From positions 4,672,001-4,736,000 of the forward strand of contig OZ244048.1 of NCBI GenBank assembly GCA_965215265.1: a stretch of 64,000 nucleotides of DNA. Reading direction: 5' to 3'. Below the pieces are notes generated by a model, which was not told the origin of the DNA, did not search any database, and saw only the letters and a program-made list of their open reading frames with translations. Each line of letters begins with the position of its first letter. Position 1 is the first letter of the stretch. Positions 18,516 to 28,630 of this stretch are shown one piece after another. The DNA comes from Candidatus Poribacteria bacterium. Lineage in GTDB: Bacteria > Poribacteria > WGA-4E > WGA-3G. The position numbers and the translations under genes were made by a program.

Positions 18516-18716
18516 CCGGCGGAGCATGTTTATAGGGCGGAGGTTACAGCAAAATCCGTTTTAATCGATGGCGATTGGATTGAGTTGCGAAAATAGAGAT
18601 TCGAATTTGTTGAAAATTGCGGAAAAGTGTCACAGCAGCGATGCAATTTTCGATGGAATCGAGTCTAGAAAAATTTGCTTTCTGGTATAATTATATCATT
18701 ATACAAAGGAGTTACT

Positions 18717-20720
18717 ATGAAAACCCTATTAGTCAACCGAAAGGTTATCAGGTCAATTCTGACTGTGATGTTGTTGATATGCGTCGCACAGTTCAGCAGT
18801 TATGTTGCTGCGGCACCTACCGTTACCGTATCAACCCCGGTGCCGTTGACGGAGGCAAACTTAGATGGGAGTGTCGTCACATTAGCCCTCAGCGGCGGGA
18901 CGTACGAACGATTTATCTTTGCTATCCGTGATGCGGTGAAAGTCTCAGGCGTTAGAGGGGTAAGTGCTACGACTTTTTTCGGTGTGAAACGTGTGAGCGA
19001 CACAGAAATGACCGTTGAACTTGTCTTCGACGGCAATATAGATAGCGATACCACATTAACCTTCACCATTAGTGCTGGTGCCATAGCCGAATATAATGGT
19101 CCCGCGCTCACCGCACAACTCCCCATCACTGCCGTAGCCGAATCGGTAGTTGCCTCAACCGCCCTTCCGTTGACGGAGGCGAATTTGGATGGGAGTGTTG
19201 TCACTTTAGCCCTCAGTGGCAGGACTTACGAGCGATTTATCTTTGCTATCCGTGATGCGGTGAAAGTCTCAGGCATTAAGGGTGTAAGTGCTACGACTTT
19301 CGGTGTGAAACGTGTGAGCGACACCGAGGTGTCCGTTGAACTTGCCTTCACCGGCAATATAGATAGCGATGCCACGCTAACCTTTACTATCGGTGCTGGT
19401 GCCATAGCCGAATATAATGGTCCCGCGCTCACCGCACAACTCCCCATCACTGCCGTAGCCGAATCGGTAGTTGCCTCAACTGCCCTTCCGTTGACGGAGG
19501 CGAATTTGGATGGGAGTGTTGTCACATTAACCCTCAGCAGCAGGACCTACGAGCGAAATATCCGCGCTATCCTTGATGTGGTGACAGTCTCAGGCATTCC
19601 GGCGGTAGCCGTTAAGACTACCTCGCAGAGTGACGAGGCAGCAACACAAAGTGGAGAAGATATCTGCCAAACTGACGATGTGCTTGCCCCCGGAGAAAGT
19701 TGCACTTACCCCGGCACGGACGGCAAGTTTTCTGTACTCCATGATGGCAGAGGTCAAGTGAAGGTGGGACCACTCAATCTCACTGCCGACAGGATTATTG
19801 ATTCCAGAAATATAACAGTGAATAATGAGATTTTTAACTTCCTTGCCAGGAACCGCGGCGGATCTTGGGTAATAGAAGAAGCTGGACACACCGTCTTTGG
19901 CGTGGCACGTGTGAGCGACACCGAGGTGTCCGTTGAACTTGCCTTCACCGGCAATATCGACACCGATGCTACGCTAATCTTCACCATCGGTGCCGGCGCA
20001 ATAGCAGGTTATGACGGACCTCCGCTCAAAGCAGAAATAACCGTCACCCCGGATGCTGAAGTTCCAGAAATACCAGAACCAGGACAAACTGGAGACAGAC
20101 CCACACAGCTTGCAGCAGATGTTAATAAGGACGGTACCGAAGACTTCCTAGATTTGGTATTTGTTGCATCACGTTACGGGCAAACAGGGCAGAATCCGGC
20201 AGATCTCAACGGGGATAACGTCGTCGATATTTTAGATCTTCTTCTTGTTGTTGCTGCACTAGACACAAGTGCAGCTGCACCTGCACTGCATCCTGATTCG
20301 ATAGAAATGCTCACCGCAGCCGACGTGAGAAAATGGCTCTCTCACGCACACTCCTTAAATCTCACGGATGCTACGTTCCGAAGAGGCGTTCTGGTTTTGG
20401 AACAACTCTTAACCGTGCTAACCCCCAAAGAGACTCTCCTCTTGCCAAATTATCCGAACCCGTTTAATCCGGAGACATGGATACCGTATCGGTTGGCAAA
20501 ACCTGGAGATGTCCAATTGACAATCTACGCTATGGACGGGCATGTAGTTCGGCGGTTGGTTCTCGGACATCAACCTGCAGGCATCTATCAGACGCGCAGC
20601 CGGGCAGCCTATTGGGATGGTAGGAATGCATTCGGTGAACCCGTGGCGAGTGGGATTTACTTCTACACACTCACGGTGGGTGAGTTCACTGCTACGAGGA
20701 AAATGATGATACGGAAGTAA
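18717..20720 (+). CDS. Secreted repeat protein with three ~107-aa Ig-like repeats, dockerin-like EF-hand pair and FlgD/T9SS-like C-terminal domain
   Basis: Signal peptide; PLTEANLDGSVVTL x3; DVNKDGTEDFLDL and DLNGDNVVDILDL; LLPNYPNPFNPETWIPY...WDGRN..GE.VASGIYFY. Confidence 0.85.
   Translation: MKTLLVNRKVIRSILTVMLLICVAQFSSYVAAAPTVTVSTPVPLTEANLDGSVVTLALSGGTYERFIFAIRDAVKVSGVRGVSATTFFGVKRVSDTEMTVELVFDGNIDSDTTLTFTISAGAIAEYNGPALTAQLPITAVAESVVASTALPLTEANLDGSVVTLALSGRTYERFIFAIRDAVKVSGIKGVSATTFGVKRVSDTEVSVELAFTGNIDSDATLTFTIGAGAIAEYNGPALTAQLPITAVAESVVASTALPLTEANLDGSVVTLTLSSRTYERNIRAILDVVTVSGIPAVAVKTTSQSDEAATQSGEDICQTDDVLAPGESCTYPGTDGKFSVLHDGRGQVKVGPLNLTADRIIDSRNITVNNEIFNFLARNRGGSWVIEEAGHTVFGVARVSDTEVSVELAFTGNIDTDATLIFTIGAGAIAGYDGPPLKAEITVTPDAEVPEIPEPGQTGDRPTQLAADVNKDGTEDFLDLVFVASRYGQTGQNPADLNGDNVVDILDLLLVVAALDTSAAAPALHPDSIEMLTAADVRKWLSHAHSLNLTDATFRRGVLVLEQLLTVLTPKETLLLPNYPNPFNPETWIPYRLAKPGDVQLTIYAMDGHVVRRLVLGHQPAGIYQTRSRAAYWDGRNAFGEPVASGIYFYTLTVGEFTATRKMMIRK
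18843..19545 (+). repeat. Intragenic tandem DNA repeats of about 320 bp
   Basis: Units begin CCGTTGACGGAGGC at about 18843, 19167 and 19488, with long identical blocks. Confidence 0.9.
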
Positions 20721-20756
20721 AAGTAGCGTATCCTGCTGAATATCCCAAATGCTTTT

Positions 20757-20793
20757 TTCGTGCTAACTACAAAACTTTTGTAGTTGGCACGAA
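20757..20793. terminator. Near-perfect 37-bp palindrome between convergent genes (bidirectional terminator or REP-like)
   Basis: TTCGTGCTAACTACAAAA-C-TTTTGTAGTTGGCACGAA. Confidence 0.7.
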
Positions 20794-20811
20794 TCTGTGG
20801 CAGGACGAATC

Positions 20812-23016
20812 TCACACCGAAACCTCCACAATCGTCATGGTATCATTGCCGAAAATGTCTACGACTTTGACAGCGAGTTTGTACCGGCCCGGCGGGCATT
20901 CATGGGCCACGCTAGTCAATTCCAACGAGCGATCTTTCTTGGTGCGGAAGCTCTGCCACTCATTTTCAAAGACGTAGTCGCCTGTCCACTGCTCTTCCCA
21001 CTCGCCTGTGTCGGGATGTTGCACTCGGATAATTTCACGTTTGCTCTCGAAGTCAAAATCAACAGACCAGTAATCGATCCAGTCTGTCCAGTGCTTGGTC
21101 AATACTTCGCGGCTATAAACGCCGTCTGCATCTCTGCTGATTTTCACAACTTGTCCCTGCTCTACCACGATGCGACTGCCTTTCTTTCTGAGCTTCTCCT
21201 CAGCATGAGCGATAGAATCCTGCGAGTAAAACACGGAGAAGTCCGTTAGTTCAACGGCTACGGTAGAGCAACCCCTATCTTTTTCTGCTGATGTGATAAT
21301 CGGCTTAGCTTCAATAAACGCCACATCGTGGAACACGACCTGCCCTTGCTCCACTGCACGCTTGTCAAATACCTCGGCAGGGATGTATTTCGGTAGGAGG
21401 TCAATCCCTTTGCTTTTGGCTTCCCCTAAGAGGTTCGGAAAAAGTCCCATTTCAAATTCAAACCCGAGGATGTCCACGCGCGTGATGCGATGCTTACGGC
21501 ATTCAAGGATGATTTCCTCGACGAATAGGCGCGTTACGGGCAGATTGACGGGCCCAACTGCCACAAGCCGCCCCGCTTTTACGCCTTGAAAAGCGATGAA
21601 ACCGTCAGCCTTTTCAGCCGCATACGCGCGCAGGATGAGGTCGATGAACGCCGCCTCTTTTTCCTCTCGTTGACGTTGTGCTAATTTTTCACGAACCCTC
21701 TCTAACTCCCCTTTGTCAGAGGGATAACTTAACTCATGATAAGGGGGGGGGGGTTGGACGGTTGCACCGATGTAGTGCTGCCGTTCATACTTGCCGAGGT
21801 TGAGAATTTCAAAAGCCCGGTAGTCTTTGCCATCCGCCTTCAGTTGCCTCTGCACAGCAATCATCCGCTTGCGCGTCGTATGGATAGCGAACTTACCAAG
21901 ATCCGTTGCAATCCACTTGCGCCCTAACTTTTCAGCAACGGCGGCAGTCGTGCCGGAGCCACAGAAAAAGTCAGCGACAAGGTCGCCGTCGTTGGACGAG
22001 GCTTTGATGATACGCTCGAGGAGGGCTTCCCTTTTTTGAGTGGGATAGTTCAAATATTCTGCAGACCTAGCATCTTGTTGAAAAGAATTAATGTCATGCC
22101 AAGTATCAGGAACCGCTATGCCTTGAAGTTCATCAAGATACTGTTTTTTCCCGCTGCCTCTGTCTCTATATTTTCTGCCATCTGCATCAACCCTTTTGAA
22201 TATTTTTAAATACTTCTCATCATAAGGTAAAAACTGTTTATTGAAAATTTTTCTATCGTGATTTTTTGAATAGAACAGAATTGTCTCGTGGCTTCTTATC
22301 CAATTATTAACTGCGGATTTGTAGCCTGACTTTGTATCAAAGAACCAAATCACCTCCCGTTCAAAATTATTCTTATTTCCAAATATTTCATCTAAGAGCA
22401 GACGAACATGGCTATTCACCCGCCAATCACAATGCACGTAAATACTGCCGTCCTCGCTCAGCAGATCGTACATCAGTGCCAACCGTTCATAAATCATAGC
22501 AAGGAAGGAGTCTGTGCCTTTGCCCCAGGTGTCACGGTAGGCAATCTCTTCAAGGATGTTTGGTGCTTTGGGAAAGGGTTCCTCATCCTCACCAATCTTG
22601 ATATTTATAGAAAAATCCGCACCCACGTCAAACGGTGGGTCGATATAGATGAGTTTGAGTCCGCCTTGTGCTTCAATCTCCTCACGCATCGGTCCGTTCT
22701 TGAGCGATGACAAAACCAATTTGTTATCGCCCCAGGTCAGCTTATTCGTCCATCCTTTAAGTTGGCGGCCGCGCTCGTCGAAAAGGGCGAGTTGCTGCCC
22801 GGTCGTTTCTGGTTTCTCTGTACGTGGTTCATCTACCTGCTCGATGGTCTGGAACGGGAGGACGGTGTTGCCCACTTCGCCGGTCTTGCCGTTCCAGACG
22901 AGTTCTACTTCGCGTTTGTCGTCGAAGAGCAGAAAGCGGTATTTGTCGGGGAGTGGTTTGTCTGCCTCAATAAAGCGGATGATTTCTTGTTGTTCTTGTT
23001 CAGTGAGTCGTGGCAT
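20812..23016 (-). CDS. mod: Type III-like restriction-modification DNA methyltransferase (Mod, beta-class N6A/N4C)
   Basis: GDNKL, IYIDPPF (motif IV), YPTQK, DFFCGSGTT (motif I); AT-rich central TRD. Confidence 0.9.
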   Translation of the reverse strand: MPRLTEQEQQEIIRFIEADKPLPDKYRFLLFDDKREVELVWNGKTGEVGNTVLPFQTIEQVDEPRTEKPETTGQQLALFDERGRQLKGWTNKLTWGDNKLVLSSLKNGPMREEIEAQGGLKLIYIDPPFDVGADFSINIKIGEDEEPFPKAPNILEEIAYRDTWGKGTDSFLAMIYERLALMYDLLSEDGSIYVHCDWRVNSHVRLLLDEIFGNKNNFEREVIWFFDTKSGYKSAVNNWIRSHETILFYSKNHDRKIFNKQFLPYDEKYLKIFKRVDADGRKYRDRGSGKKQYLDELQGIAVPDTWHDINSFQQDARSAEYLNYPTQKREALLERIIKASSNDGDLVADFFCGSGTTAAVAEKLGRKWIATDLGKFAIHTTRKRMIAVQRQLKADGKDYRAFEILNLGKYERQHYIGATVQPPPPYHELSYPSDKGELERVREKLAQRQREEKEAAFIDLILRAYAAEKADGFIAFQGVKAGRLVAVGPVNLPVTRLFVEEIILECRKHRITRVDILGFEFEMGLFPNLLGEAKSKGIDLLPKYIPAEVFDKRAVEQGQVVFHDVAFIEAKPIITSAEKDRGCSTVAVELTDFSVFYSQDSIAHAEEKLRKKGSRIVVEQGQVVKISRDADGVYSREVLTKHWTDWIDYWSVDFDFESKREIIRVQHPDTGEWEEQWTGDYVFENEWQSFRTKKDRSLELTSVAHECPPGRYKLAVKVVDIFGNDTMTIVEVSV
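21694..21755. repeat. Degenerate palindromic element with G11 tract, in frame in mod
   Basis: AACCCTCTCTAACTCCCCTTTGTCAGAGGG...TGATAA-G11-TT; encodes QPPPPYHELSYPSDKGELERV. Confidence 0.6.
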
Positions 23017-23087
23017 GGGTTTCTCTCATTTCATTAGATTCTTCGGGTTGAGAAACAGGGGGTGTCACTTCTGTAAAACAGAGTTAA

Positions 23088-23689
23088 TTACCAAATTCTG
23101 TCAAGCCCGTAAGTTAGTTCAATATGTGCTTTCATACCTCGGTCAGTAACATTGACAAGATTTTTGAAGAACGCCTCAGTCTCTTGAATCGTCTTGCTCG
23201 TTAGTCGGATTCTCCCACTCGATGATTGTGTCCAATTGTAAGCTGGCATATCAAAACCGTGTGCGAAACTATGGCGAACACGTAATATCTCATTCAATCG
23301 CTCCCGAACCTGCAAGCTTACCATTCCCCGTCGAATCCAGACCCAATCGTCAATTGGATCATATCCTGTGTATTGGACAAGAAGGTTGCGTGTATTTTCC
23401 CAGTTTGGCGTATTAATCTTGTCAAAGCATTTTCTGCTGTGCCCTTAGCGAGTGTGTATACAGCATCAAATTTTAGGTTCAAGGGCTCTGCTATCACATT
23501 GTAGAAGTTACGCACCAAGTTGCTTATGTATGCGTTCCAGGCTGCGACGTAAGCTGCAAGTGCTGCGTGATAGTAAACCTGTTTTTCATCACGCGACGTA
23601 GGTCTCAATCGGCTATCTGTTGCTGTTCTGCGAAGTGTCCGTATGTGACCTACTGCGATGCTGTACTTCAATGCTGCTGGCGATGGCAC
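23088..23689 (-). pseudogene. HEPN-domain RNase-like protein (~200 aa), split by one missing base at 23415-23416
   Basis: Adding one T joins ORFs 23318-23689 and 23088-23324 into ...AAWNAYI...RFNTPNWEN...LNEILRVRHSFAHG, with the Rx4H HEPN motif. Confidence 0.75.
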
Positions 23690-23698
23690 AAGAAACCT

Positions 23699-24820
23699 TT
23701 AAAGATAACTTACAAATTCAGTGAGTGCTTCTCGATACCCCTCTAAAGGTCCAGGGTTGATTTGAACCTGTTTACCGTGAACTTTATTTGGTCCGGCACG
23801 AAGGCTATTTAAAGGTATTCCTTTAATTGTCATAACCACACAAGCACTGTGATAGTCGGGTATTTCTATGAACCTTTCGCTTGGTAACGCTTTCGGTGTT
23901 GCATAGATTTGGCGATGCTTCTTGTGAAGATCATCTAACGTTCTTTTAATAGATGCACTCACTGCCTCGAACGCCATGCTTGCTTTGCCGCGATAAAGGG
24001 TTACGCGGTTACTGACGAAGGTGTGAAGTTTGGGAATATCCAAACCTTCTTCCTTCGCTCTGTTGGTAAAGTTGATTCTCGCATAAGTTTCTATCTTCGG
24101 GTCACCCTCACCGATACTGTATCCATAAAGCAGCGCGACGACATTCTCCACAGCCCTACGCGAACTATCATCAGGTGTAAAAGGCACGACAAGATTTTCG
24201 GCAGCAGCGAGTGCCAATTGGGTGTAGATAGCGAAACTCGGATTACAGTCAATAATGAAGAGCGTATCTCTGTCTCCGCTTCGCTTACGCAACGCGATTG
24301 TTAGATCTTTGATCCAGCAGAGTACCTGTTTCCATGCATTTATTGGGATAGCGAGTTGAGATGTCTGGCGAATCGCCTCCGATAGAATTTCCAACAGATA
24401 ATCGCCGCAAACCAAAAGTAAATTGATTGGAAGCTTTGGGTTAAAGTCCCGAGGGCGACACACATAGGGAGATACATCCTTGATAGACTGAAAGGGAGAA
24501 TTCAGCCGTGCTTCTAGATAGCCCGCGACTGTAGCACGAGGTGTTTTCTCTATCAGTTTGTGTATCACATCATAATTTTTGTGAGTGACATTATAATCAA
24601 TTGGAAACATTTCGTCGGAATTAGTTGAAGACAATTGGTTGGGATTAATTAACGCCTCGGAATTCAGTAGTAACATCTCAGAGATATTTGCCTGCGGGCA
24701 GAGGTCTATAACATAAACATCGGTGCCCGGGTTAGCACGGGCATATTCAGTTGCTGCAACAAAAGCTAAGAAACTTTTGCCAACCCCGCCCTTGTTGTTC
24801 CAGAATGCATAAGTTATCAT
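23699..24820 (-). CDS. ParA/Soj-family ATPase (stand-alone, no ParB)
   Basis: Deviant Walker A WNNKGGVGKS, IDLCPQAN, IDCNPSF. Confidence 0.88.
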   Translation of the reverse strand: MITYAFWNNKGGVGKSFLAFVAATEYARANPGTDVYVIDLCPQANISEMLLLNSEALINPNQLSSTNSDEMFPIDYNVTHKNYDVIHKLIEKTPRATVAGYLEARLNSPFQSIKDVSPYVCRPRDFNPKLPINLLLVCGDYLLEILSEAIRQTSQLAIPINAWKQVLCWIKDLTIALRKRSGDRDTLFIIDCNPSFAIYTQLALAAAENLVVPFTPDDSSRRAVENVVALLYGYSIGEGDPKIETYARINFTNRAKEEGLDIPKLHTFVSNRVTLYRGKASMAFEAVSASIKRTLDDLHKKHRQIYATPKALPSERFIEIPDYHSACVVMTIKGIPLNSLRAGPNKVHGKQVQINPGPLEGYREALTEFVSYL

Positions 24821-24897
24821 AATACAATCCTCTTAAAAGGGAAATTTTATCAACCTCAACCTCAAGAATAGCAGGAACATGGTTCGTTATTCACACG

Positions 24898-27582
24898 CTA
24901 TGAGGTTTTGTACTCGTTGAAGCCGTCGAGCAGCTGCTGAAAGGTTTCCGGTCTATATGTCTCAAAGCTCCCTTGATCGACGTAGACGAAATCATAATCA
25001 ACATCTGACGTGGCTCTGTTGACATCCTCACACCATTGTGCCAGTCGGTGCATCTTGCGCGGTACATCCAGATCTTCTCTGCCCTTGGTTTCGACGACAA
25101 TCACGCGTCCGTCCGTCAACTTGACGAGGAAGTCCGGGTAGTAATTGGCGATGTCTCCGTCTGCGGTGACGTAATCGAGTTTAAAATGCACCGCATAGTA
25201 GTTTTTAGCGTAGGCAGTGACATCGGGGCAGTTTTCCAAAAATGCAGCGAATTTTAATTCAAGATTCCTATCCCCGGTAATTTTATTGAACACGGATTTT
25301 TGGGGAATTAAGTATTTCTGCTCTTTCACCATAAAAGGTTGCGTATCTTGCACTCTGACCGTCTCGCTCAATTGTGCATTCCCTTTATCCCGTATCGTGA
25401 GCGCGTTAATGGCACGCTTGAAAGTCTCGATGACGGTTTTCGTAGCCGGGCTTTCCGCCAGATTGCTCAAAGTAAAGGGGTTATCCAACGCCACCGTCTC
25501 GCCAAACAGGTGGTGCTGAACAAACTTCTTCACCTTTGGGTATAGCACCTCATAACCGCTGACGAGTCGTAACTCTTTCATGATCGTCTGTGCGAAATAG
25601 CCGAGTGCACTGCGGTAATCTTCAACCCCGGGGCCCTCCATTACTGTGGTATGGGAAACTTCGCCCGTTGTCATGTATTCAAACCTAATTTCCCGGATCT
25701 CCGTTTCGAGGGACTCCTGATAGGTTATAGGGACAAACTCAAGTTGTGCAAGATCCAAGTCAGCCAGATTTTTGTATTCACGATAGACGCGGCGCGTGAG
25801 TATCGGAATCTCAATATCGAGTGCGTCGATGTGCTTGTTAGGGTTCTCTTTATCGACCTCAATTACGAGCGGGGTTTTGGGTTTCGTGGCTTCACCCATG
25901 GGTTGACGTTCTAATTCGACACCCTCCTCTTGGATTTGCTCAATGAAATCCATGAAGGCCTTGGTTCCGACCACGCTCACAGATTCGTTCACTGCGTTGG
26001 GATACATCCGGCGGAGCCCGCGGCCTAACGTCTGCTCCGGTAAAATGTTGCTTTTGGCGGAATAGGCCCGGAGTCCGACAATGGTTGTAACGTTTTTGAC
26101 ATCCCATCCCTCCTTGAGCATCAACACGGAGACGATCGCCTTGTAGGGGTTATCCGGTGAATCAATCTCATTTGCCTGTTTACGGAGTTTCTCTAATTCT
26201 TCTTTGCTCTTACCGGATGTCGCTTCTGAAATTTCACCATTTTTCTTGGTGTGAATCACCAGAACAGAATTTTTGAGTTGTGGGTAGCGTTTTTCCAGAT
26301 AATCCGCGACTTCATCGCAGTTTTTGGTATCATCAGTCATCACAAACAGGATGGCTTTCTTTCCGAGTTTTTCATGTTCTACGAATGCTTTTTGCCACTC
26401 AATGATGCCGAGTTCAAGGTAATCAGCGTATTTCTCTGTGTATTTCGCGCTTTGCCGCTCAACAAGTTTCGTTCTGCTCTCTGCATCGGGGAGCACCGGG
26501 TGCTTGACCACGTTTTGCGAGATTGCCTCGACGAGGGGATAATCTGCGACCGTCTGTACAAAAATTGCGCCGTCGTTATGCTTAGGTGTGGCGGTTACGT
26601 CCACTTGTAATGCGAGTTCACTGCCTTTTTGCAAGAGACGGTTGTGGATATCCTCAATGGACTTGAACCATGCCATCTGAGGGTTATGGATATGATGTGC
26701 CTCATCGTTGAGCACCATCAGTTCGTCTATGTCCCGTACAATATCTCCGAGGTCTACCTTAGAGTCTGTGGTTGCGCCTGTGGGTTTTTTGCCGAAGAAG
26801 TAGTCCATACTATTGTCATCGTGCGGTGAGGGGTGGGCCTGGTCACTGGGATAGACACGGTGGATATTGGTTAGAAAGATGTTGCTGGTGGGTTGGGTGA
26901 CGCGGGCTTCATCCTGCAGGTGTAACGTCAGTTGAAAATCGTCGCGCCAGTTGTGCCCTTCAAAACCGTTGTTGGGTAACACCGGGTCTTCAGAGAAGAT
27001 ACGCAGCCCCTGAAAATCGTGATAGAGGCGGTCAAGCACAATGATATTAGGGGCGATAACGAGAAAGTTTCGCGAGAGTTGGGAGTCTGGTTCATACAGT
27101 TTGTGAAAGAAACTCCAGGCAATTGCAAGGCTCATCACCTTTGTTTTTCCTGTCCCTGTTGCCATTTTTATGACAAACCGTCGCCAGTTTTCGTCAAATA
27201 GTCCGGTCGAAATAGTGCCGGAACTGTCAAAGCGCATCAGATCAAATTTATTCCTCACTTTGACGACATCATGAAGATAGATGATGGTTTCGAGTGCCTC
27301 GCGTTGTGCGAAGTAATACTGAAACTTGCTCGCTCTGCCATCTGGCTGTTCTCGTGGGTGCGGCGTATTAAACCACCAATTGAGAAGTGCCCGGCTTGTC
27401 TCGGAAGCACCTTTGTAGTTGTCATCGCGCCACGTTTTGACCTGCTTTCGGATTTTTTGGACAAGCGGGGGCAGTAACATGCCATAGGGGGCTTCACGCA
27501 GCAGTGTTTCATCCGGAAGCCAGCGTACTGAAGGATCCATTATTGCGTATGGAGATTCGGGGAAGTCCCTGTGTAGTGCCAT
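24898..27582 (-). CDS. res: Type III-like restriction endonuclease subunit (Res): SF2 helicase/ATPase + PD-(D/E)xK nuclease
   Basis: MATGTGKT, NDEAHH, TATP, EGWDV, EQTLGRGLR, YYPDFLV...VETKG. Confidence 0.9.
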   Translation of the reverse strand: MALHRDFPESPYAIMDPSVRWLPDETLLREAPYGMLLPPLVQKIRKQVKTWRDDNYKGASETSRALLNWWFNTPHPREQPDGRASKFQYYFAQREALETIIYLHDVVKVRNKFDLMRFDSSGTISTGLFDENWRRFVIKMATGTGKTKVMSLAIAWSFFHKLYEPDSQLSRNFLVIAPNIIVLDRLYHDFQGLRIFSEDPVLPNNGFEGHNWRDDFQLTLHLQDEARVTQPTSNIFLTNIHRVYPSDQAHPSPHDDNSMDYFFGKKPTGATTDSKVDLGDIVRDIDELMVLNDEAHHIHNPQMAWFKSIEDIHNRLLQKGSELALQVDVTATPKHNDGAIFVQTVADYPLVEAISQNVVKHPVLPDAESRTKLVERQSAKYTEKYADYLELGIIEWQKAFVEHEKLGKKAILFVMTDDTKNCDEVADYLEKRYPQLKNSVLVIHTKKNGEISEATSGKSKEELEKLRKQANEIDSPDNPYKAIVSVLMLKEGWDVKNVTTIVGLRAYSAKSNILPEQTLGRGLRRMYPNAVNESVSVVGTKAFMDFIEQIQEEGVELERQPMGEATKPKTPLVIEVDKENPNKHIDALDIEIPILTRRVYREYKNLADLDLAQLEFVPITYQESLETEIREIRFEYMTTGEVSHTTVMEGPGVEDYRSALGYFAQTIMKELRLVSGYEVLYPKVKKFVQHHLFGETVALDNPFTLSNLAESPATKTVIETFKRAINALTIRDKGNAQLSETVRVQDTQPFMVKEQKYLIPQKSVFNKITGDRNLELKFAAFLENCPDVTAYAKNYYAVHFKLDYVTADGDIANYYPDFLVKLTDGRVIVVETKGREDLDVPRKMHRLAQWCEDVNRATSDVDYDFVYVDQGSFETYRPETFQQLLDGFNEYKTS

Positions 27583-27638
27583 CTTTCTCTTTTTCCTTAT
27601 TGACTGGAACACCTTAGCTTAATTAACAGATGTATTAA

Positions 27639-27668
27639 AGTTTAGCACAAAGTGGTATTGAATGTCAA
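27639..27668 (-). promoter_or_regulatory. Putative sigma70 promoter of the res-parA-HEPN-mod unit
   Basis: TTGACA-18 bp-TAAACT with TGn on the minus strand. Confidence 0.5.
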
Positions 27669-27714
27669 CCGATATTTTTTGTCGAACACTTGTGAGAAAG
27701 GGGTTGAGCAGATA

Positions 27715-27804
27715 CCGCTTCGGGGATGACTGACACGGTTTCTCACAGAAATACCCCGCCATCGCTCCTACCGTCAACTTATAAAAAAAATGGGCGGAAG
27801 TGAG
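27715..27804 (+). mobile_element. Solo diverged right end of the IS/MITE family found at 35839-36225
   Basis: AAAAAAAATGGGCGGAAGTGAG matches the MITE TIR (2 mismatches vs reverse complement of left TIR); upstream CCG.TTCGGG...CACGG.TTTCTCACA also shared. Confidence 0.65.
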
Positions 27805-27909
27805 AGATCGCATCTATCTTTTTCTTTCAAAGCCTTAACGAACTGCAGACAACGCTGCTATAATTGAAAATGTGTATAACATTAAGAAAGTATGGAGAGG
27901 CTAACGGGT

Positions 27910-28630
27910 ATGCCCCAAGAACGCGATAGCGCCGTGAAATATTTGATGCACCTCAACACGCTACCGTTCGTCAAATTTATACTTGGCGAACTTGCCGGAG
28001 GAAAGATGGAGATAGTGGAAATCGTTGACACGCAACAGCCGAAGTTCGTCTCCCATGAAGGCAACAGCACTGTGAAAGTGAAGATCGATGGCAAACCAAT
28101 GATTGTGCATATCGAATTTCAAGTCACCGACAGCGCGCAGCCGATGTGGGCAAGGCTTGCGACTTACTCTGGCTATCTCATCGGCATACACCAATACCCC
28201 GTCTACTGTACAGTGGTCTATCTCCGTCCAACGGCAGGACGCAAAGACCCCGGAGGCTACGCTTATGACGTAGGCCACTTCAAATACCTCTTGCAATATA
28301 AGGTTCTCCGGCTCAGTGAAGTCGATGGAGAATCCGTCTTACAACAACAAGTACCGGAGTTACTACCGTTCACGGGACTCATGAAACGCCCGGCAGGGAT
28401 GGGCTAAAGGCGTGGCTAGAAAGGTGCGTTGCCAGTGCAACCTCACCGGACCTGCTGATTGACGACACCACCCGCGCAGATCTGATAGCACTCTTCAAGG
28501 GACTTACCGAAACCGTTTGCGGTATAGAGATAATCAAGCAGCTTATAGAGGAGAAACTCATGGAAAAATCCAGTTTCCTTCAGGAATATATTCAACGCGG
28601 CCTCCAACAAGGGCGCGAAGAAGGGGTGAG
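27910..28630 (+). pseudogene. Rpn-family (recombination-promoting nuclease/putative transposase-like) protein, frameshifted at 28401-28403, probably 3'-truncated
   Basis: VHIEFQ, PVYCTVVYLRP, LLPFTGLMK; shifted frame continues WLERCV...LMEKSSFLQEYIQRGLQQGREEG. Confidence 0.75.

Follow-up and report, generated by a model that had tools for sequence, protein, structure and literature searches.

Organization of the res–parA–HEPN–mod locus

The window, a 64,000-nucleotide stretch of the genome of a sponge-associated poribacterium, contains four co-oriented genes that were delineated by open reading frame (ORF) analysis and all lie on the minus strand: res (24898..27582), parA (23699..24820), a HEPN gene (23088..23689) and mod (20812..23016), with intergenic gaps of 77 bp (res–parA), 9 bp (parA–HEPN) and 71 bp (HEPN–mod). 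The initial annotation had described the same order and orientation, with which the ORFs and their Pfam and PADLOC identities agree; its parA–HEPN spacing of 9 bp was recovered on remeasuring, and, as it had stated, no ParB gene was found among the four by Pfam. Its impression that the parA–HEPN cassette is more AT-rich than res is borne out by GC contents of 0.444 and 0.485, respectively (mod, 0.487; window, 0.483). The promoter-like element that it had placed upstream of res is indeed present on the minus strand (27668..27639; TTGACA-18-TAAACT, extended TG, 10/12 positions matching), but this sigma-70-like match is weak evidence, as the region holds 10 such sites against 8.6 ± 2.4 in shuffled sequences, which is not a significant excess. 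A scan of positions 20000–28600 against Rfam at E ≤ 0.1 gave zero matches, and a 171-amino-acid (aa) ORF at 27892–28407 matched nothing convincing in Pfam at E ≤ 0.5.

The longest ORF of res spans 24898–27612, starting from a GTG at 27612. The ATG at 27582, which gives a protein of 894 aa, is probably the true start, because relatives (893–895 aa) are alignable from residue 11 of the window protein. Res has the features of a Type III-like restriction subunit: a helicase at the N terminus (Pfam ResIII, 1.6e-17) and a PD-(D/E)xK-like endonuclease region at the C terminus, in which residues 771–857 give weak matches to Tn7_TnsA-like_N and RE_endonuc. It also matches PADLOC REase_III (6.3e-19) and the NCBIfam BPTD_3080-family restriction endonuclease (1e-83), the latter at 282 bits and so under the cut-off of 800. 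The 734-aa product of mod is a Type III-like N6/N4 DNA methyltransferase (Pfam N6_N4_Mtase, 1.1e-42; PADLOC MTase_III, 6.3e-110), whose orthologues (65–75% identity) occupy the matching position in other Poribacteria. The locus thus combines a Res helicase–endonuclease with a separate N6/N4 Mod methyltransferase, as in Type III restriction–modification (RM) systems. The classical Type III order is mod then res; the order here, res then mod with a gap between them, is atypical.

The intact parA encodes a 373-aa ParA/Soj-type SIMIBI ATPase with a deviant Walker A motif (KGGVGKS) and a Walker B motif (IIDCNPS); K10, G11, G12, G14, K15 and D184 do not vary among 62 sequences. The protein matches Pfam AAA_31 (6e-12) and also CbiA. 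An AlphaFold model of the ParA of a relative (L013; pLDDT 77) has the ParA/Soj/MinD fold, with DIP2308 (3pg5), McdA (6nop), ParA–ATP (8ray) and Soj (6iub) as its top Foldseek matches in the PDB (E about 7e-9, probability 1.0). The features of a partition ATPase (ParABS) were not found: the NCBIfam ParA_partition model gives 41.6 bits, where its cut-off is 180, and a ParB_N neighbour occurs in only two of 32 surveyed contexts (L094 and L095). PADLOC-DB v2, including its PDC candidates, yielded no family at E ≤ 0.01 for the window ParA or for two ParA relatives.

The HEPN gene is split by a single-nucleotide deletion

The HEPN gene is not a single ORF. Its two parts, frame A (23318–23689; 123 aa) and frame B (open over 23088–23444), are offset by −1, and frame B carries the NTPN and RHSFAH motifs. 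The missing base is the third of the Phe codon of RFNTPN, in the context AGATT-AATAC (between 23414 and 23415, minus strand), and a nucleotide alignment to five relatives (L004, L045, L014, L025 and L013) contains one gap column, in the window only. Contigs from the runs of two studies (X1 and X4), one of which is possibly the source of the assembly, match the window exactly across the break, and the contig of a near-identical strain (X6) carries one more base behind position 23414. The X6 contig, a single contig of depth 6, is also 2 nt short at 23642, a difference to which we attach no weight. Programmed frameshifting can be rejected, because 49 of the 55 genome loci in which HEPN follows ParA encode HEPN as one ORF of at least 190 aa and the near-identical strain has the missing base. 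A sequencing artefact is judged unlikely, because the identical break is carried by accurate long contigs from both studies, with the proviso on the source of one of them given above. As read from its coding frames, the HEPN gene of this genome has been inactivated by a 1-nt deletion, with parA, res and mod intact.

The split gene belongs to the RiboL-PSP family (PF18735). Intact relatives of 200 aa score 41–43 bits against the Pfam gathering cut-off of 28.4, and 50 of 51 HEPN alignment rows match the family (best E 1.4e-12). Owing to the split, the C-terminal fragment in the window stays short of this cut-off, with 25.2 bits (1.8e-5). Across the 51 rows, conservation of the Rx4H residues R139 and H144 is 90% or higher, and NTPN (N93–N96) is nearly invariant. 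The model of the L013 HEPN protein (pLDDT 92.4) displays the all-helical HEPN fold; a Foldseek search of the PDB gave zero matches at E ≤ 1e-3, and a wide VIA-align search placed HEPN toxins at the head of its ranking (Z 9.1–7.5), with SO_3166 (5yep_B, Z 9.1) as the best match. Nine of its top ten entries are HEPN proteins, with Z scores (9.1–7.3) that are middling for helical bundles. With relatives above the family cut-off, the Rx4H motif in place and a fold search led by HEPN toxins, the HEPN assignment of the initial annotation stands. No family in PADLOC-DB v2, PDC candidates included, matched either HEPN fragment or two intact HEPN relatives at E ≤ 0.01.

ParA and HEPN form a conserved pair that does not need the restriction genes

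A ParA-seeded scan returned 68 loci, of which 62 were informative after removal of five Streptomyces loci (36% identity) and one contig end; HEPN directly follows ParA in 55 of these 62. Conversely, in HEPN-seeded scans of viral and metagenome contigs, ParA lies directly upstream in 56 of the 60 loci with room for it, and the four exceptions are HEPN remnants. The homologues of this ParA are therefore tightly linked to HEPN in the kind of neighbourhood survey that the initial annotation had proposed. The two genes are 2–25 nt apart in most loci and are found in Poribacteria, Chloroflexota, Cyanobacteria, Actinomycetota, Verrucomicrobiota and three viral contigs. ParA–HEPN is thus a conserved, co-transcribed-looking pair present in at least five phyla as well as in viral contigs. 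HEPN comprises about 416 sequence clusters in public data, and among the 120 clusters listed, the only name is 'hypothetical protein'. There is also a second HEPN subfamily, of 259 aa, which has a distant ParA of its own.

The pair is independent of this restriction system: it occurs without this res/mod in 35 of the 62 informative genome loci and in 82 of 83 metagenome and viral loci (the exception being L074). Outside Poribacteria, its neighbours include TldD, CysRS, Dus, NRPS, ribonucleotide reductase, phage tail or GTA genes, integrase and transposase, among others.

The res–mod gap is a variable cargo slot in Poribacteria

Placement of ParA–HEPN between this res and mod is seen only in Poribacteria, an uncultured group, where the window and a further 18 genome loci have all four genes. 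A res-seeded search of 29 loci, four of them uninformative, found ParA after res in 17 and other content in eight, namely an Mrr-like nuclease, a two-gene pair (c7–c4), a further gene (c28), or mod itself after about 480 nt, the last in one relative whose res and mod are separated by merely this distance. For the cargo proteins c7, c4 and c28, a Pfam search at E ≤ 0.5 gave nothing convincing. The gap between res and mod is therefore a variable cargo slot that holds other cargo in relatives. Conversely, res and mod are missing or in fragments in two loci that share the flanks of the window (L004 and L031), both of which retain an intact ParA–HEPN. In a quick IQ-TREE phylogeny of ParA, copies residing in the restriction locus are interspersed with those found elsewhere. 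Only about a third of the examined ParA–HEPN contexts look defence-related or mobile.

HEPN and ParA decay unequally

HEPN is absent from seven loci and shortened or broken in six more, in addition to the window, whereas ParA is broken in a single genome locus (L066), in which HEPN is broken too. Loss of HEPN corresponds to at least four independent events on the ParA tree, and all seven HEPN-less ParA genes lie in a res–mod context, against none of 35 outside it. In these loci, ParA is full-length and under purifying selection (dN/dS (omega) 0.09–0.18), including the HEPN-less sister pair L029/L035, in which selection is still purifying at a dS of 0.50. The reverse situation is represented by one metagenome contig (L093), with an intact 202-aa HEPN ORF beside a ParA that lacks its N-terminal half.

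Relation to known systems

The closest described arrangement is the dyad of ParA/Soj and HEPN (MAE_18760 family) predicted by Anantharaman et al. in 2013 (PMC3710099) to be a toxin–antitoxin system, with ParA as the antitoxin and HEPN as the RNase toxin. As in that dyad, a ParA/Soj SIMIBI ATPase gene lies directly upstream of a small Rx4-6H HEPN gene; the 2013 dyad was prominent in cyanobacteria and was a purely computational prediction, as is the pair described here. The present HEPN, which probably differs in family from that of the 2013 dyad, matches RiboL-PSP (PF18735) in 50 of 51 rows, and PF18737 (MAE_28990/MAE_18760-like) is touched by only 10 of the 51, at E 0.002 or worse; the table of the 2013 paper gives the RiboL-PSP family as 'operon with ParB', not ParA. 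The statement in the initial annotation that such pairs had been noted bioinformatically, with no characterised RM-embedded example known, holds, and a literature search found no experimental paper on toxicity, RNase activity, ParA–HEPN binding or phage protection in this family. 'ParA' as a whole word is absent from a study of BREX diversity (PMC12839542) and from the DefensePredictor preprint (bioRxiv 10.1101/2025.01.08.631726).

Three other systems share parts of this design. Like PrrC in the type Ic restriction locus EcoprrI, the window has a putatively ATPase-regulated type of HEPN RNase inside an RM operon; however, PrrC joins an ABC-type ATPase and the nuclease in one polypeptide and is dependent on its restriction partner (partly after PMC3710099), whereas here a ParA-type protein forms the ATPase on its own and most copies of the pair occur without any restriction system. 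Obligate residence in an RM locus, as for PrrC, was accordingly not found in the genome, metagenome or viral loci counted above. As in MNT–HEPN (MntA–HepT), a small HEPN toxin gene follows the gene of a nucleotide-using partner, and SO_3166 and other MNT-associated HEPN toxins are the best structural matches of the HEPN model; the partner here is a P-loop ATPase rather than a nucleotidyltransferase, and an AMPylation-type mechanism cannot be assumed. Finally, the 'guilt by embedding' survey of Payne et al. (2024; bioRxiv 10.1101/2024.01.29.577857), which covered Hma, BREX, DISARM and Type I systems, described variable cargo slots in restriction-type operons that hold nucleases and ATPases, much as seen here. 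By contrast, the present operon is Type III-like and so falls outside the scope given for that survey, and neither ParA nor HEPN matches its candidates, which are contained in PADLOC-DB v2.

Interpretation of the ParA–HEPN module

The best reading of these data, to which we assign a probability of roughly 0.6, is that a Type III-like res–mod operon has a slot occupied by a horizontally mobile ParA–HEPN module, an optional cargo that works as a toxin–antitoxin or abortive-infection-like pair. In this scheme, the HEPN protein would act in dimeric form as an RNase toxin of the Rx4H type, which an ATP-dependent ParA dimer would keep inactive; infection, nucleotide or DNA stress or a similar trigger would make ParA release HEPN, halting growth. 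Of the copy in the window, ParA alone, as the presumed antidote or regulator, would remain functional. Loss or breakage affects HEPN far more frequently than ParA, which fits optional cargo of this kind. Linkage, autonomy, the cargo slot, independent decay of module and restriction genes, the asymmetry of HEPN loss, the conserved motifs and folds, the HEPN break in the window and the 2013 precedent were counted in favour of this reading, and the PADLOC nulls, the retention of ParA without HEPN, L093 and the modest share of defence-related or mobile contexts against it.

The initial annotation had instead proposed a PrrC-like backup for the Type III system. In such a reading, ParA–HEPN would bind Res/Mod and unleash its RNase once the Type III-like enzyme has been disabled by a phage anti-restriction factor. 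The co-oriented position of the pair inside the operon in the window and the 18 further loci, and its occurrence after res in 17 of 29 res-seeded loci, speak for such a guard, as do the established precedents of PrrC and other restriction-locus RNases (PMC3710099) and the embedding principle (bioRxiv 10.1101/2024.01.29.577857). Nevertheless, as a general account it is very unlikely and lacks support, because only Poribacteria have the res–mod placement, the slot is variable (eight of 25 informative res–mod operons lack the pair) and the pair outlives res and mod, as in L004 and L031. Its predominance in loci without this res/mod, the mixing of copies from inside and outside the restriction locus in the ParA tree, and the broken effector beside intact res and mod in the window likewise argue against it. 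A lineage-specific coupling to the restriction system in Poribacteria is possible. A purely selfish addiction module that stabilises its host DNA segment and has no antiviral role would account for the patchy distribution, the GC content below that of the surroundings, the insertion among housekeeping and NRPS genes and the frequent decay of the toxin. This appears unlikely, given that the pair also occurs on viral contigs, beside a tail gene and an integrase, that some loci adjoin Schlafen, ABC-3C, AAA_15, caspase-like or methylase genes, and that the poribacterial copy sits in a defence island with PD-T4-4-like and AriA/PtuA-like genes.

The persistence of ParA deserves separate consideration, since a mere antidote would be expected to decay, yet ParA stays intact without HEPN and may therefore have another role. 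One version makes ParA the primary player in Poribacteria, serving the restriction operon or other slot cargo, for instance as a DNA-bound ATPase that regulates or positions either of them, with HEPN as a dispensable add-on. The confinement of HEPN-less ParA to res–mod contexts (seven of seven, versus none of 35 outside), its repeated origin and its sustained purifying selection, even in L029/L035, point in this direction, although the HEPN-less counts come from related genomes and are non-independent. Such a role is nonetheless quite improbable: outside Poribacteria, this same ParA always accompanies HEPN and never this restriction system, some res–mod loci have no ParA, and orphan antitoxins can persist for other reasons. 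A more speculative version, which we regard as a long shot, holds that the poribacterial ParA was co-opted into the Type III-like operon as a DNA-bound sensor of Res/Mod state or incoming DNA, and that HEPN serves it as a suicide effector that can be exchanged. It would then be understandable that ParA, solely within res–mod loci, persists as an intact gene under purifying selection where HEPN has repeatedly been lost; if true, the locus would constitute a two-layer system analogous to EcoprrI–PrrC, assembled from unrelated parts.

The established tasks of ParA-type ATPases are the positioning of DNA and of organelles; toxin control is not known to be among them. Evidence that a ParA dimer gates a HEPN RNase, as the preferred reading of a mobile toxin–antitoxin or abortive-infection-like module entails, would thus bring a new regulatory logic to toxin–antitoxin and abortive-infection biology. 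For this window the finding is modest, because the HEPN effector is a pseudogene; its wider interest lies in the tight conservation of the pair across well over 100 loci of several phyla and of viral contigs, for a combination that is not catalogued in PADLOC-DB v2 and for which the literature search found no experiments. The Type III-like res–mod operons also have a cargo slot of the kind described for Type I, BREX, DISARM and Hma systems (bioRxiv 10.1101/2024.01.29.577857), and in sponge symbionts this slot carries further unstudied genes.

The res–parA–HEPN–mod locus

The four co-oriented genes of the initial annotation, all on the minus strand, were confirmed: res (longest ORF 24898–27612, with a probable start at 27582 giving 894 aa, as relatives align only from residue 11), parA (23699–24820; 373 aa), HEPN (23088–23689; split over two frames) and mod (20812–23016; 734 aa), separated by gaps of 77, 9 and 71 bp, with the 9-bp parA–HEPN spacing as described. 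Matches of Res to ResIII (1.6e-17) and, weakly, to C-terminal endonuclease families in Pfam, to REase_III in PADLOC (6e-19) and to the BPTD_3080 family in NCBIfam (1e-83, score under the family cut-off), together with those of Mod to N6_N4_Mtase (Pfam, 1e-42) and MTase_III (PADLOC, 6e-110), support the assignment of a Type III-like system. The cassette is indeed AT-rich, with a GC content of 0.444 versus 0.485 (res), 0.487 (mod) and 0.483 (whole window), and the ParA has no ParB gene beside it, again as proposed. The promoter-like element upstream of res is present at 27668..27639 (minus strand), but such matches are not significantly more frequent in this region than in shuffled sequence; Rfam gave zero matches in the operon region. 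A 171-aa ORF without a Pfam match (27892–28407, plus strand) and, on the opposite side, a 681-aa protein with internal repeats (18675–20720, plus strand), whose C-terminal tail looks like a putative secretion-sorting signal, flank the operon; syntenic L004, L031 and L045 have neither at the equivalent position. The window's genome holds a single copy of the cassette ParA and, outside the window, a second res paralogue (G000:C1:3531241-3533736; 38% identity, 915-aa open frame).

Frame A of HEPN (23318–23689) codes for the first 92 residues common to relatives, and frame B, open over 23088–23444, for ...NTPNWENTRNLL...VRHSFAHGF.... In an alignment with five relatives, one base is missing in the window only, at the third position of the Phe codon within R-F-N-T-P-N. 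Assembly error is argued against by contigs from sequencing runs X1 (depth 43.6, 13-kb piece) and X4 (depth 14.3, 3-kb piece), which belong to two studies: they are identical to the window over 22900–24000 and carry the same break, although one of the two runs may be the source of the assembly itself. A contig from a third study (X6, depth 6) has the extra base behind 23414 and also lacks 2 nt at 23642, and run X7 has a diverged version with 71 nt in place of 70 nt. Programmed frameshifting is disfavored by relatives, in which HEPN is a single ORF of 190–202 aa in 49 of 55 genome loci having HEPN after ParA. In the window's strain the break is thus most likely genuine, and the HEPN gene here is a pseudogene with a 1-nt deletion.

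The HEPN and ParA families

Intact relatives of the HEPN protein match PF18735 (RiboL-PSP-HEPN) at 41–43 bits, over a gathering score of 28.4. This family is matched by 50 of 51 alignment rows, and PF18737 (MAE_28990/MAE_18760-like) is weakly touched by 10 of the 51 (best E 0.002). R139 and H144 (Rx4H), NTPN and the YYH motif are each at least 90% conserved in the alignment. With the confident AlphaFold model (pLDDT 92.4), Foldseek returned nothing at E ≤ 1e-3. Of the ten best entries in an all-against-representatives structural search, nine are HEPN proteins, by title or by probable identity; matches include SO_3166 (Z 9.1), 4nqf (Z 8.9), HI0074, TT1696, MNT-associated HEPN toxins and HepS (Z 7.5), values that are middling for helical bundles and weigh only jointly with the PF18735 profile match. 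The anticipated HEPN fold is supported by profile and structural search, though not by Foldseek.

In ParA, the deviant Walker A residues (K10, G11, G12, G14 and K15) and Walker B D184 are invariant. Structural matches of its model (pLDDT 77), with E about 1e-8, are DIP2308, McdA, ParA-ATP, Soj and the pSM19035 delta protein; ParA is no partition equivalog (41.6 bits versus a cut-off of 180). ParA is better conserved than HEPN among relatives (57–83% versus 35–76% identity), with ω of 0.09–0.18 in every tested pair, including HEPN-less ones (L029/L035: dS 0.50, ω 0.11).

Linkage and distribution of the pair

Seeding a scan of one genome per species with ParA yielded 68 loci, which belong to Poribacteria, Caldilineaceae, many cyanobacteria, Frankia, Luteolibacter and, in five cases, Streptomyces. 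After removal of the five Streptomyces cases and one locus at a contig end, 62 loci are informative, and HEPN directly follows ParA in 55 of them. In scans seeded with HEPN (3 viral and 80 metagenome loci), ParA lies directly upstream in 56 of 60 loci with at least 1150 nt of upstream room (55 by the set criterion plus L146, in which the genes adjoin without a gap); the remaining four loci hold only a HEPN remnant, 100–137 aa long. ParA–HEPN is a conserved, autonomous module. A single contig (L093) carries an intact 202-aa HEPN ORF beside a ParA lacking its N-terminal half. The Streptomyces ParA proteins (36% identity; L062–L065 and L068) are without HEPN and adjoin TnsA-like, Mu-type transposase and TniB genes of a Tn7-like element; a conserved 489-aa protein without a family match precedes them.

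Outside Poribacteria, neighbors are mainly housekeeping or unrelated genes (TldD/PmbA, CysRS, Dus, ribonucleotide reductase, radical SAM, NRPS). In five cyanobacterial and metagenome loci (L040, L042, L054, L079 and L080), the pair sits between two large non-ribosomal peptide synthetase genes and has their orientation. Across 32 metagenome and viral contexts (two neighbors each side, 120 proteins), four touch DNA methylase or restriction genes: L073 (Eco57I), L132 (N6_N4), L133 (Vsr and C5 methylase) and L074 (res, assigned by tblastn to an ORF without a Pfam match). A further eight or so have a defence-like or mobile character, with GTA/phage tail, Schlafen and integrase, AAA_15/AAA_21, ABC-3C MC5, transposase, caspase and dCTP-deaminase-like, HTH and antidote protein genes; ParB_N neighbors occur in two of the 32. 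On a viral contig (L070:86-6600), the pair adjoins a GTA/phage tail gene (GTA_TIM, Phage-tail_3), a typical place for accessory defence cargo. The proposed linkage of ParA to HEPN is strong but that to restriction loci is not, and the module is mobile, at times among defence genes, without a tie to restriction systems.

Cargo of the res–mod gap

In the ParA-seeded set, 18 loci have the order res–ParA–HEPN–(other genes)–mod and six have ParA without HEPN between res and mod, with one further ParA and one ParA–HEPN pair each beside a res remnant. The gap also accommodates genes for an Mrr_cat nuclease of ~300 aa (cluster c14), a recurrent pair of ~150 aa each (c7–c4) and c28. With res as the seed, a match was obtained in 65 of 151 genomes from the phylum. 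Among the best 29 non-own loci, ParA lies within 1.5 kb after res in 17, eight have only other cargo or, in L178, mod after ~480 nt, and four are uninformative (two at contig ends, two matching none of the queries); because there is overlap with the genomes of the ParA-seeded set, and the loci are related by descent, the counts describe the sample rather than independent trials. The res–mod gap is a cargo slot in Poribacteria.

The Mrr_cat protein (Pfam 3.5e-18), a third kind of cargo, lies between HEPN and mod at L060:9746-10654, L045:9978-10889 and L004:9878-10783, and stays with ParA–HEPN where res and mod are lost. The c7–c4 pair, absent from the window, occupies the slot with or without ParA–HEPN (L003:9738-10618, L022:9748-10682, L028:9059-10145 and L010:6914-7800); neither protein has a Pfam match of note, nothing convincing was found for the pair in Pfam, PADLOC or NCBIfam, and c4 shows a weak resemblance to FlgT_C (E 3e-4). 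On the downstream side of mod, relatives encode a PD-T4-4-like (PDC-M47) pair (L021:7926-9314 with L026:4563-5147; PADLOC 3.5e-198 and 1.8e-53), an AriA/PtuA-like ABC ATPase with a DUF4325 STAS-like protein after it (L060:14298-15851 with L014:12090-12455), and a PIN protein. The first two sets are absent from the window, where, unlike in relatives, the region does not form a defence island.

The initial annotation read the pair as a PrrC-like guard of the Type III system. That reading is partly supported: a ParA–HEPN module, as yet uncharacterised, is indeed embedded in a Type III-like operon. In the window, L004, L031 and L045 alike, genes for a solute-binding protein, a short-chain dehydrogenase and two permeases border one end of the locus, and an acetamidase-like gene borders the opposite end. 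Within these shared flanks, res (N-terminally short), ParA, HEPN, Mrr and mod are all present in L045; L004 retains ParA–HEPN–Mrr, lacks res and keeps only a 40-residue trace of mod; L031 has res and mod fragments around an intact ParA–HEPN; and in the window res and mod are intact and HEPN is broken. These decay patterns indicate that the pair and the restriction system are dispensable for each other. On a quick maximum-likelihood ParA tree, copies within and outside the restriction locus are intermixed. The evidence thus favors mobile cargo that is optional, in a slot prone to swaps, over a dedicated guard.

HEPN is missing in seven loci and short or broken in six (L018, L030, L044, L046, L055 and L066) plus the window, and ParA is broken in L066 alone, jointly with HEPN. 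The HEPN-less state requires five changes on the ParA tree, at least four forced by supported branches. Frequent loss of the toxin with the antidote kept fits toxin–antitoxin logic. All seven HEPN-less ParA genes lie in res–mod context, against none of 35 outside, so that in Poribacteria ParA may have a second role.

Working model and relation to known systems

HEPN RNases work as dimers with a composite Rx4-6H site, and ParA/Soj proteins form ATP-sandwich dimers via a signature lysine; the corresponding residues are conserved in both partners. The most likely working model is a ParA-gated toxin: ParA, in one nucleotide state, would sequester or occlude HEPN; a trigger would alter that state and free HEPN; and freed HEPN would cut RNA, arresting growth. 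A 2013 paper (PMC3710099) puts forward essentially the same model for ParA/Soj–HEPN dyads that differ from the window pair in HEPN family; it was the only paper found in a full-text search for ParA/Soj with HEPN. The embedding survey of Payne et al. deals with Hma, BREX, DISARM and Type I systems. Neither protein matches any PADLOC-DB v2 model, embedded-gene candidates included. The pair can be classed with predicted ATPase–HEPN pairs of the toxin–antitoxin or abortive-infection type, and with defence genes that lie inside restriction operons. HEPN falls into 416 sequence clusters in public data; among the 120 listed, the sole name, on two, is 'hypothetical protein'.

PF18735 is diverse in cyanobacteria, exceeding the cut-off in 33 of 151 genomes. 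Of 37 loci examined there, four carry the same ParA as the window, 28 are without ParA, and five (L185, L209, L213, L214 and L215) encode HEPN proteins of a 259-aa subfamily and have a distant ParA-like gene immediately upstream (20–24% identity over ~360 aa in four; 167 aa in L214). At least two branches of the family are therefore associated with ParA, and the subfamily's own ParA-like gene suggests that ParA–HEPN pairs form a wider class.
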